A DNA stretch of 44,979 nucleotides. Origin: a virus. The translations under genes were made by a program, and so were the position numbers. The notes under the pieces were generated by a model. That model worked only from the letters and a program-made list of their open reading frames with translations, searched no databases and was not told the origin of the DNA. Where the stretch lies: the IMG/VR virus record IMGVR_UViG_3300029244_000004; one strand, given 5' to 3'. Positions within the stretch are counted from its first letter, which is position 1; each line of letters starts with the position of its first letter. Of this stretch, positions 21,470-23,754 are shown piece by piece.

Positions 21470-22204
21470 CTAAAACAGCCGGTAGTTTAGTTCGTCGTCC
21501 AGCATTGACCAGCGGAAAACTTTATCATCCACATAGATCATCCCCTCATCCTCCAGTTGGAAGCGCCTGTCAAAGTCGTGAACTGTATGTCCGTCCGCCT
21601 TGAACGTCACGGGGCTATCCTTATCCCATTTGAGCATCAGCGCCCACAAATCCGGGTAGCTCTTCCGAAGAATCCTGAGCTGTCCTACACTCTGATTGTG
21701 GCAGAACCAGCATCCTCCACGGGTAGCGGTGGTGTAGATTGGGGATAGCAAATCGTTCTCTTCACACCATCGGCGGCAATCCGTCTCTGTCCATCCTGCC
21801 TCCACCAGAGGACTTTTCTTTTTGTCAGACAGGCTATGGAACCTATTCGGTTCGTCTGCGGCGATGCCGATGTACTGGACGGCGTCTCTCAGGAGCCGCC
21901 CTAGAACGTGTTGCTTTAGACGGCTATTACACCAAGGCCCTCTCTGATAGGGCCAGCCGTATATTTTCCCGCCGCGCTCTCCGTCGCCCTCGCAAATCAT
22001 GTAGAACAAGTCCTGATAACAGCGCTTCGCCCTAACGTGCTCCACCTCGATTCCCCACCGCTCCTTGACGATCTTGTCGGCCTTGGACTTAAACTCCACC
22101 ATCGGCGGCAGGTCGGCAGGGATGGTGTCTGTGGCCCAAACTTCGGCATGCACGATCCGGTCAAGTGGCCATCCAAGTTCCTCAATCGCTCCCAGACAAG
22201 CCAA
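21470..22204 (-). CDS. PAPS reductase-like (PP-loop superfamily) protein; 5' end appears frameshifted
   Basis: ..GGCWFCHNQSVGQLRILRKSYPDLW.. matches the phage PAPS-reductase pattern. The track start is TTG. The expected PP-loop segment lies in another frame upstream (22219..22254). Confidence 0.65.
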   Translation of the reverse strand: MACLGAIEELGWPLDRIVHAEVWATDTIPADLPPMVEFKSKADKIVKERWGIEVEHVRAKRCYQDLFYMICEGDGERGGKIYGWPYQRGPWCNSRLKQHVLGRLLRDAVQYIGIAADEPNRFHSLSDKKKSPLVEAGWTETDCRRWCEENDLLSPIYTTATRGGCWFCHNQSVGQLRILRKSYPDLWALMLKWDKDSPVTFKADGHTVHDFDRRFQLEDEGMIYVDDKVFRWSMLDDELNYRLF

Positions 22205-22246: not shown

Positions 22247-22597
22247 TCAGGCATGGTTGGCATCACCGTCCTCTCCCTCCGGCGGGCGGCGGTCAGGCAG
22301 TTCCGGGATTGGTAGCCAATGGGTGACTCGCCCATAGAGCTCATCAAACACAAAGCATTGAGTGCTATCAATCCAGTCAATGCCAATGCGGCCATTCCCG
22401 TAGTGTACCAGCACATCTTTTCGCTTCTCTGGTAACCTCTTATTCACGCTCACCCACTCGTTCGGCGGGGTGATGGTTGGCACCTCTTGGATTATTTTCC
22501 TTGCCGCCGCATTAAAAACCTGTTCATCCTCTGTATCTGCTGGGCTATATGCGAACTTTTTCAACAGTTCGTTACCGTCAATCAGTCGTACTGCCAT
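22247..22597 (-). CDS. DUF551-like protein
   Basis: The C-terminal NEWVSVNKRLPEKRKDVLV...HWLPIPELP matches the DUF551 pattern. Confidence 0.55.
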   Translation of the reverse strand: MAVRLIDGNELLKKFAYSPADTEDEQVFNAAARKIIQEVPTITPPNEWVSVNKRLPEKRKDVLVHYGNGRIGIDWIDSTQCFVFDELYGRVTHWLPIPELPDRRPPEGEDGDANHA

Positions 22598-22853
22598 CTT
22601 TCAGCGCCTCCAGCATCTCCATCTCCTCCGCGCTCAAAATCGGCGCACGGGTGTTCCATATCTGCCGTGCTTCTTCCAAGTCGTACCCCGCCGCCATAAA
22701 CCCACATGGGCATTCAATCATTACACATGCCATCACGGCCCTGTGCTTCGCGTCCTCACCTCTGCACCCTGGGCACGGCAACAGCACCCCCGCCTCCGTC
22801 AGCCGTCTGGCCGCCTCTTTTGAGCCGAGCATCGCTAATTTAATGTCATCCAT
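22578..22853 (-). CDS. Lar-family restriction alleviation-like zinc-ribbon protein
   Basis: ..LLPCPGCRGEDAK....IECPCG....EARQIWNTR matches the Lar-like pattern. Confidence 0.55.
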   Translation of the reverse strand: MDDIKLAMLGSKEAARRLTEAGVLLPCPGCRGEDAKHRAVMACVMIECPCGFMAAGYDLEEARQIWNTRAPILSAEEMEMLEALKDGSTTD

Positions 22854-23754
22854 GTATAATCCCCTTCTCTATGTCCGCTATGGCCTGAAACACCGGATAA
22901 AACTGCTGGGGAACTACTGCGTTTCCAAGGCATTTAAGTCTGTCCACCCGAGAGGGAACCCCATAAGCCACTCTACAAATGTCGGGTTCAATTGGCCACC
23001 AGCCACCACGTCCAGGCTTGGCCCTCCGTCTCTGTGCCTCTCTCCATTCCCTCTGCTGTTCTGCGCTTTCGGCGTGGGCCACATCTTCACCATCCCGCTC
23101 AAATTTGGCTCGCCCCTGCTGTTGTGATAAAACTTCCGGTTCGCCGAATCTGACGCAATCGGAGTTTTCCAAAGAATAGGTTCTCCGTCCTCTCCCGTTA
23201 TGTTTTCTTTCCAGCGCTCTACACCCGATAATCGCGCATCTGTCCCTCCTGTGCGGGGCGTCGACGGAACAAGCCGGAATAATAAACGCTTGGACGGAGT
23301 AACCTTCGTTTTCCAGGTCAGCGTACACCTGGTCGAGTGCCATATTGACGATCCCAGCAACATTCTCGCCAACGACCCAAGCGGGCCGGAGTTCCGATAT
23401 AACTCTAAGCATTTCAGGCCAGAGGTAACGGTCATCGTCACTGCCTCTTCGCTTCCCGGCAACGGAGAAGGGCTGGCACGGAAATCCTCCTGAAACAATG
23501 TCAGCTGTTCGCAGTCCTGTTTTTTCATAAAAGCTCTCCTTTGTCAGCGTCCTGATGTCCCTCCAGCGTGGCACATCTGGCCAGTGTTTTTCCAGCACCT
23601 TTGTCGGATAGTCCGCCCACTCACATTGTCCAACGGTTTTAAATCCAGCCATTTCCGCCGCAAGATCCAAGCCTCCAATGCCGGAAAACAGGGATAGATG
23701 GGTTAGCTTCGCCGCCTCTTTGTCGCCCAGCAGGGCGGCCTTCTCATCCTTCAC
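22846..23754 (-). CDS. DNA (cytosine-5)-methyltransferase
   Basis: GTG start. Motifs present: FSGIGG (I), GGFPCQPFS (IV), GENV (VI), APHRRDRCAIIG (VIII) and LGNAVVPQ (X). Confidence 0.85.
   Translation of the reverse strand: MKDEKAALLGDKEAAKLTHLSLFSGIGGLDLAAEMAGFKTVGQCEWADYPTKVLEKHWPDVPRWRDIRTLTKESFYEKTGLRTADIVSGGFPCQPFSVAGKRRGSDDDRYLWPEMLRVISELRPAWVVGENVAGIVNMALDQVYADLENEGYSVQAFIIPACSVDAPHRRDRCAIIGCRALERKHNGRGRRTYSLENSDCVRFGEPEVLSQQQGRAKFERDGEDVAHAESAEQQREWREAQRRRAKPGRGGWWPIEPDICRVAYGVPSRVDRLKCLGNAVVPQQFYPVFQAIADIEKGIIHG

Follow-up and report, generated by a model that had tools for sequence, protein, structure and literature searches.

A single stretch of DNA, read in two frames, probably encodes the two chains of a nested DNA cytosine-C5 methyltransferase of the M.EcoHK31I type. 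The window, that is, the whole 44,979-nt stretch of viral DNA analyzed here (IMG/VR record IMGVR_UViG_3300029244_000004), carries on its minus strand an open reading frame, alpha, for a C5-methyltransferase large chain. Wholly within alpha lies a second one, beta, shifted by +1, such that codon position 1 of frame b is codon position 2 of frame a (Table 1). Frame b is a real gene, neither a relic nor an error, and most likely encodes the second, DNA-recognition subunit of the enzyme. Alpha would provide the AdoMet-binding and catalytic core, with motifs I–VIII joined to motif X by a spacer of about 80 residues whose sole requirement would be the lack of a stop codon. Beta would be translated independently from an internal AAGGAG-N7-ATG signal, its first ~115 residues being overprinted on alpha motifs IV–VIII and its C-terminal ~90 residues consisting of tandem boxes followed by motif IX. 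We infer that the two chains physically associate, beta filling the small-domain position left empty by the alpha spacer, that the assembled enzyme is active, and that its specificity resides in beta. As an orphan methylase encoded in the prophage early region, it would modify phage and host DNA against restriction.

Table 1. Features of the nested locus, in window coordinates
Feature	Coordinates	Strand	Remarks
Alpha ORF, C5-methyltransferase large subunit	22846..23754	-	302 aa; motifs I–VIII, open spacer, pre-X/X
Alpha catalytic core, motifs I–VIII	23224..23703	-	frame a is the selected frame; third-position excess
Alpha spacer, residues 178–256	22987..23223	-	R/E/Q/G-rich; stays open, protein sequence unconstrained
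Alpha pre-X element and motif X, PDICRVAYGVPSRVDRLKCLGNAVVPQ	22906..22986	-	frame a selected from about RLKCLGN on
Beta ORF, proposed small subunit	22914..23528	-	204 aa, ATG start; wholly within alpha, +1
Beta translation start: AAGGAG, 7-nt spacer, ATG	23526..23541	-	embedded in alpha codons K72–E77
Beta N-terminal part, ~115 aa	23181..23525	-	overprinted on alpha motifs IV–VIII; weakly constrained
Beta variable region: two tandem ~31-aa W-x-T-P boxes (LWKTPIASD.., MWPTPKAQN..)	22995..23180	-	presumed target-recognition part
Beta putative motif IX, LNPTFVEWLMGFPLGWTD	22938..22991	-	frame-b periodicity 0.292/0.105/0.097

The extents and offset of the two frames, the motifs I, IV, VI, VIII and X of frame a, and the W-x-T-P and NPxFVEWLMGFPxGWT boxes of frame b had all been described in an earlier note on this DNA, and the open reading frames and their translations agree with that description in every respect. 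Alpha begins with a GTG preceded by GGAGGA and contains FSGIGG (motif I), GFPCQPFS (motif IV), ENV (motif VI), QAFIIPACSVDAPHRRDR (motif VIII) and LGNAVVP (motif X). The first four of these lie in a Rossmann-type catalytic domain, which places alpha among the C5-methyltransferases. The Pfam profile PF00145 matches residues 18–185 (profile positions 2–168, E=2e-40), the NCBIfam profile TIGR00675 scores 119 bits against a cut-off of 100.65, and recognition by Pfam and NCBIfam is confined to the first 185 residues. In PHROGs, phrog_363 (“DNA methyltransferase”) matches alpha over its full length, and more than 8000 alpha homologues were found. The AlphaFold model, built from 66 sequences, is confident at residues 15–180 and 280–296, with pLDDT below 50 at residues 182–279. 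Foldseek and phmmer align the core to M.HaeIII, M.HhaI and the prophage enzyme 3g7u over only ~170 columns, corresponding to the large domain; the Foldseek probability is 1.00 for M.HaeIII and M.HhaI, and the aligned part of M.HhaI comprises residues 5–170.

The middle of alpha had been portrayed as an R/E/Q/G-rich stretch rather than a folded target-recognition domain, and our analyses bear this out. These four residues make up 49% of positions 178–256 compared with 24% elsewhere in the protein, and the spacer is open but not constrained as a protein (naive dN/dS 1.68; pLDDT <50). Motif IX and a constrained variable region are absent from alpha and are both present in frame b, so that no single polypeptide of the locus combines motifs IX and X with a recognition domain. 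Downstream of the spacer, R272, C275, L276 and G277 of alpha are invariant. In three alpha homologues of 490–523 residues (P0060, P0081 and P0105), the spacer holds a conserved, protein-like insert (..LSDEAKERAREILRNLREE..FLCEYEE..HRREYHSQLAREYSDALFRLSH..), which may be a real frame-a domain or another nested element.

Frame b reads ..ILWKTPIASDSANR..VKMWPTPKAQNSRG..LNPTFVEWLMGFPLGWTDLNALETQ, beginning with the N-terminus MKKQDCEQLTLF.., continuing through the two ~31-aa boxes and ending with LNPTFVEWLMGFPLGWTD. The latter is nearly invariant among 101 beta sequences and is putatively motif IX, an assignment made from its consensus and its position in relatives, without a profile match. When the two frames are searched separately, as had been suggested, alpha is recognized by PF00145 and phrog_363, and beta by phrog_1008 (“DNA methyltransferase”), which spans beta residues 3–199 and profile positions 32–282 of 329 (E=1.9e-38). 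Pfam and NCBIfam yielded zero matches to frame b. Neither an in-silico a–b–a chimera nor the C-terminal halves alone, compared with Pfam, lengthened the match so that it reached the C-terminal half of PF00145, and a comparison of beta with the PDB sequences gave chance matches only. For beta alone, AlphaFold (101 sequences) reached a pLDDT of 42 without a confident model; this low-confidence prediction would be compatible both with folding on alpha or DNA and with the absence of such folding, and neither supports nor excludes it.

Beta-like proteins are abundant. A word-indexed search returned 1887 homologues, all of about 180–280 aa and devoid of Pfam domains, and an exhaustive search of a representative library returned 12,917 representative clusters at E≤1e-3. 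The homologues differ in box number; P0304, P0243, P0255 and P0386 have very different counts of tandem [WFLM]-P-T-P-x-A-x-D boxes, up to ~10. One of them, P0386 (869 aa), bears a long, unrelated fusion at its C-terminus and for this reason cannot nest in an alpha of ordinary size.

The translation start of beta sits between the early motifs of alpha and motif IV, and the same ATG with an upstream GGAG occurs in most of the 81 loci first examined. Codon usage in alpha is skewed precisely where this signal is embedded. Among 158 distinct sequences, alpha codon 76 is TAT in 101 cases and TAC in 3, compared with a background of 128:114, and codon 73 is GAG in 89 cases and GAA in 21, compared with a background of 404:432. 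The synonymous sites of alpha are therefore constrained so as to preserve the ribosome-binding site and the start codon of beta.

Both frames stay open far beyond chance, as judged by random synonymous recoding of the alpha protein (for frame b) or of the beta protein (for frame a). Over the 103 codons that overlap motifs IV–VIII, frame b was open in ~0.1% of the recodings. Across the variable region, frame a was open in 0.7% of them for the window gene and in 0–19%, mostly 0.2–4%, for twelve other loci. In none of the 13 genes tested, namely the window gene and these twelve loci, is the third frame open.

Selection on the two frames was followed by codon-position differences and dN/dS in pairs of homologues (Table 2), the kind of test that the earlier note had put forward, and it gave a dN/dS of 0.18 (naive estimate) for frame b over the variable region and motif IX. 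In the spacer region, the third position of frame a is its most conserved position. The position differences and the dN/dS values together show that the constrained reading is a, then b, then a. The boxes and motif IX of beta are thus constrained as protein, and the N-terminal ~115 residues of beta are only weakly constrained beyond staying open; opposite this part, the diversity at four-fold sites of alpha is 0.41, compared with 0.57 outside the overlap.

Table 2. Differences per codon position in pairwise alignments of 75–98.5% identity, and dN/dS (NG86; values for overlapping frames are naive estimates)
Region	a1 (=b3)	a2 (=b1)	a3 (=b2)	dN/dS, frame a	dN/dS, frame b
Before overlap	.122	.079	.493	0.07	2.40 (out-of-frame control)
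Overlap with motifs IV–VIII	.150	.087	.270	0.20	1.00
Variable region	.206	.087	.058	1.68 (with motif IX)	0.18 (with motif IX)
Motif IX	.292	.105	.097	pooled with variable region	pooled with variable region
After beta stop	.096	.075	.366	0.09 (4 pairs only)	n/a

The nested arrangement is widespread. We collected 243 loci, comprising 80 viral, 80 metagenome and 80 GTDB genome loci and three others. Relative to alpha, beta matched in the +1 frame in 163/163 loci of the viral/metagenome set and in every one of the 80 GTDB genome loci. Complete enclosure of beta by an alpha that ends in GNxV was seen in 70 of the latter. The loci come from Oscillospiraceae, Lachnospiraceae, Paenibacillus, Brevibacillus, Bacillus and Bacteroidota, and furthermore from Pseudomonadota, Patescibacteria, Chlorobiota, Acidobacteriota and Coriobacteriia, and the beta start and reading frame are conserved across phyla down to 31–40% beta identity. 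The window itself is 99% identical to a region of Muriventricola aceti H5_61 (L164), and megablast with the gene as query gave no close match among cultured phages. Some genomes carry the pair repeatedly: an identical nested pair occurs at five sites of an uncultured Roseovarius chromosome (OX638333; L215–L217, L219 and L220) and on three contigs of the Lihuaxuella thermophila genome (L189, L191 and L192), pointing to a prophage or mobile element that bears the pair and is present in several copies.

Relatives with other layouts help to assign the parts of beta. A chimeric query, in which the boxes and motif IX of beta were joined to motif X of alpha, retrieved proteins with motif IX, a spacer and then ..EPxxPRxAxGxxxRVxRLKxLGNAVVPQ, all in one frame. 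In L200 and L234 (both from Brevibacillus isolates), L197 and L245, alpha ends shortly after motif VIII, and the beta frame runs through the N-terminal part, the boxes, motif IX and motif X (for example, L200 1290-2436). Since motifs IX and X occur only in beta at these four loci, a complete enzyme is impossible there unless beta is translated. In L246, one frame holds the whole region from motif IV to motif X, including four W-P-T-P boxes that separate VIII from IX; this contig has very low coverage and an internal stop in motif IV. Judged from these layouts, the boxes would occupy the variable, target-recognition position, LNPxWVEWLMGFPxGWT would be motif IX, and RVAYGVP of alpha belongs to a separate pre-X element. 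In three database proteins (P0169, P0172 and P0264), the reading passes from the alpha to the beta frame. These proteins could be natural variants that arose by deletion or frameshift, or products of misassembly, and they illustrate that the two frames easily become fused.

The same relatives settle the nature of the RVAYGVP and EWLMGFP readings, which the earlier note had mapped onto each other nucleotide for nucleotide. Their overlap in the DNA is correct, but they are not two versions of one motif: in L200, L234, L245 and L246, one frame contains motif IX and, after it, motif X, and a single motif read twice is ruled out by the serial order of the two elements in these loci and in P0391. 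The correspondence in the window is due to the GGGGTTCCC run and not to a common ancestry of the motifs, and the overlap results from the nesting.

Other explanations of the double reading must be weighed against the nested two-chain enzyme. Two programmed ribosomal frameshifts, from a to b after motif VIII and from b back to a between IX and X, would yield a single polypeptide with the canonical order I–VIII, recognition region, IX, X. The a–b–a course of the selected frames and the single-frame arrangement of motifs IV through X in L246 are in keeping with such a product. However, direct reading of the sequence disclosed no slippery heptamer, in-frame stop or recognizable shift site at either junction, and the first junction falls in a modular, poorly conserved region. 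Frameshifting would also leave unneeded the SD-ATG of beta, the 100 open frame-b codons before the boxes and the open frame-a spacer, three features that are conserved against chance odds of roughly 0.1–4%, and M.EcoHK31I works as two separately expressed chains (PMC2836561). We consider this route very unlikely. The recoding into two isoforms, which had been offered as one option, finds no support here, as a slippery site is absent and both frames are open far beyond what a frameshift needs. It is less probable still that frame b is the untranslated relic of a single-frame gene that suffered compensating indels, with frame a working alone through a degenerate linker. Single-frame and half-shifted relatives do exist, and gene callers and PGAP usually annotate alpha only, but a relic would decay, whereas frame b has a naive dN/dS of 0.18, a third-position excess, an intact reading frame and a start conserved across phyla, in a region where frame a lacks amino-acid constraint. 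Compensating indels are the likely evolutionary origin of the arrangement, given the one-frame relatives, but not a defect of the present gene.

That beta is a real protein outside the methyltransferase, for instance one with a regulatory role or an independent function in DNA binding or anti-defence, is improbable, although beta alone has neither a Pfam or NCBIfam match nor a confident fold and its relative P0386 bears a long unrelated extension. Alpha lacks motif IX and a constrained variable region, and beta has exactly those; motif X is also part of beta in some relatives, and beta was found apart from the alpha reading frame in 0/243 loci. Indels introduced by sequencing or assembly of the contig can practically be dismissed, as the same arrangement is present in isolate genomes (Muriventricola aceti H5_61, at 99%, Paenibacillus, Brevibacillus and Bacillus) and in cultured phages. 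The possibility of an overprinted gene, also raised in the earlier note, is the one that agrees with a complete nested gene bearing a conserved SD-ATG start and evolving under purifying selection.

The pair is located in a prophage replication/early module, with genes for a DnaB-like helicase and a RusA-like resolvase upstream and a Lar-like restriction-alleviation gene and a DUF551 gene downstream. A scan of five adjacent ORFs revealed no gene for a restriction enzyme; four of them have Pfam matches, the exception being 21470..22204. This context fits an orphan protective methylase. The neighbouring 91-aa ORF at 22578-22853 (minus strand) overlaps the alpha stop by 8 nt and matches the Lar family PF14354 weakly, with 26.5 bits, just below the cut-off of 28.6; a Lar-like identity would put a second anti-restriction function beside the methylase. 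A 22-nt direct repeat (22810-22831 and 23711-23732, 82% identical and 901 nt apart) lies at the 5' ends of this gene (22578..22853) and of the methyltransferase gene (22846..23754), both on the minus strand, and because of it the methyltransferase and Lar-like proteins begin alike (MKDEKAALLGDKEAAKLT.. and MDDIKLAMLGSKEAARRLT..). Alpha homologues likewise begin with MDDIKxALLG. The two repeat copies flank the methylase cassette and may mark a recombination junction through which it is gained or lost.

Our findings bear on the annotation of these enzymes. Only one member of the pair is annotated in the records checked, which were a metagenome contig and RefSeq-derived/PGAP plasmid records, sometimes as a “hypothetical protein”; standard gene callers retain one of two nested ORFs on the same strand. 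When beta is omitted, the matching of methylomes to genes, the prediction of specificity and heterologous expression will fail for such common prophage methylases. The locus also provides a clear, deeply conserved case of bacterial dual coding over ~600 nt, in which the selected frame switches twice.

A broader proposal, which we consider evenly balanced between right and wrong, is that DNA specificity lies in the nested beta across ~13,000 clusters (50% identity), and not in the large chain as assumed in the literature on M.EcoHK31I, that it is carried by 1 to ~10 interchangeable ~31-aa W-x-T-P boxes per protein, that the “variable region” of alpha is a stop-free, out-of-frame shadow, and that three layouts interchange by single frameshifts. 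These layouts are one chain; alpha (I–VIII) with beta (boxes, IX, X); and alpha (I–VIII, X) enclosing beta (boxes, IX). If true, the family would offer a natural system for the origin of overprinted genes and split enzymes, and would be suited to studying how box shuffling alters methylation specificity.

Among known systems, M.EcoHK31I is the closest in design, with chains of 309 (alpha) and 176 (beta) residues, similar in size to the 302 and 204 residues in the window. As in that enzyme, the small chain of the window is encoded in a second frame entirely within the large gene, from a start of its own, and has a putative motif IX, and the large chain holds motifs I–VIII and X, the comparison being one of published descriptions rather than of sequences. 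M.EcoHK31I of E. coli (isoschizomer M.EaeI; Lee, Kam & Shaw 1995) is a heterodimeric C5-methyltransferase in which alpha contains motifs I–VIII and X, beta contains motif IX, and activity needs both (PMC2836561, PMC3404938). Its internal Met codons 17 and 26 of beta are suspected translation starts (PMC2836561). The layout was thus already described, although the earlier note did not recognize it. The two systems differ in two ways. The predicted recognition domain of M.EcoHK31I was placed in alpha and not in beta (PMC3404938), whereas in the window selection reads the variable region in the beta frame, which suggests that the recognition part of EcoHK31I-type enzymes may sit in the small subunit. 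Furthermore, M.EcoHK31I belongs to a restriction-modification pair, and the window gene is an orphan located beside a Lar-like gene within the replication module of a prophage. Among plasmids, a tblastn search with beta turned up no enterobacterial record usable as a proxy for EcoHK31I.

The other natural two-chain C5 enzyme is M.AquI (Karreman & de Waard 1990; PMC3404938), which is split within the variable region. L200, L234, L197 and L245 are divided likewise, with I–VIII in alpha and the rest, including IX and X, in beta. In the window, by contrast, motifs IX and X do not share the C-terminal subunit, as motif X is in the alpha frame, and beta is therefore fully nested instead of following alpha. 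Beta here also has an additional N-terminal part of ~100 residues overprinted on motifs IV–VIII, which is likewise present in the four M.AquI-like loci.

Monomeric C5-methyltransferases differ from the window locus in that a single frame encodes their only chain, which includes the folded recognition domain. The likeness lies in the core, which aligns in sequence and structure with M.HhaI, M.HaeIII and the CP-933R enzyme (PDB 3g7u), and in the order of motifs, as the a–b–a reading recovers I–VIII, variable region, IX, X and the single-frame relative L246 has W-x-T-P boxes between VIII and IX.

Genes 61/62 of Paenibacillus phage Leyra (MG727701) form the same nested pair, both being annotated as DNA-cytosine methyltransferase, and its beta is 45% identical to that of the window. 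The P. larvae phage genome paper lists the nested pair, and the nesting is not discussed there. To conclude, the nested design itself is already known from M.EcoHK31I, and phages of Paenibacillus larvae carry annotations for both ORFs; novelty may lie in the position of the recognition region in beta, the breadth of the family, and the existence of three interconvertible layouts.
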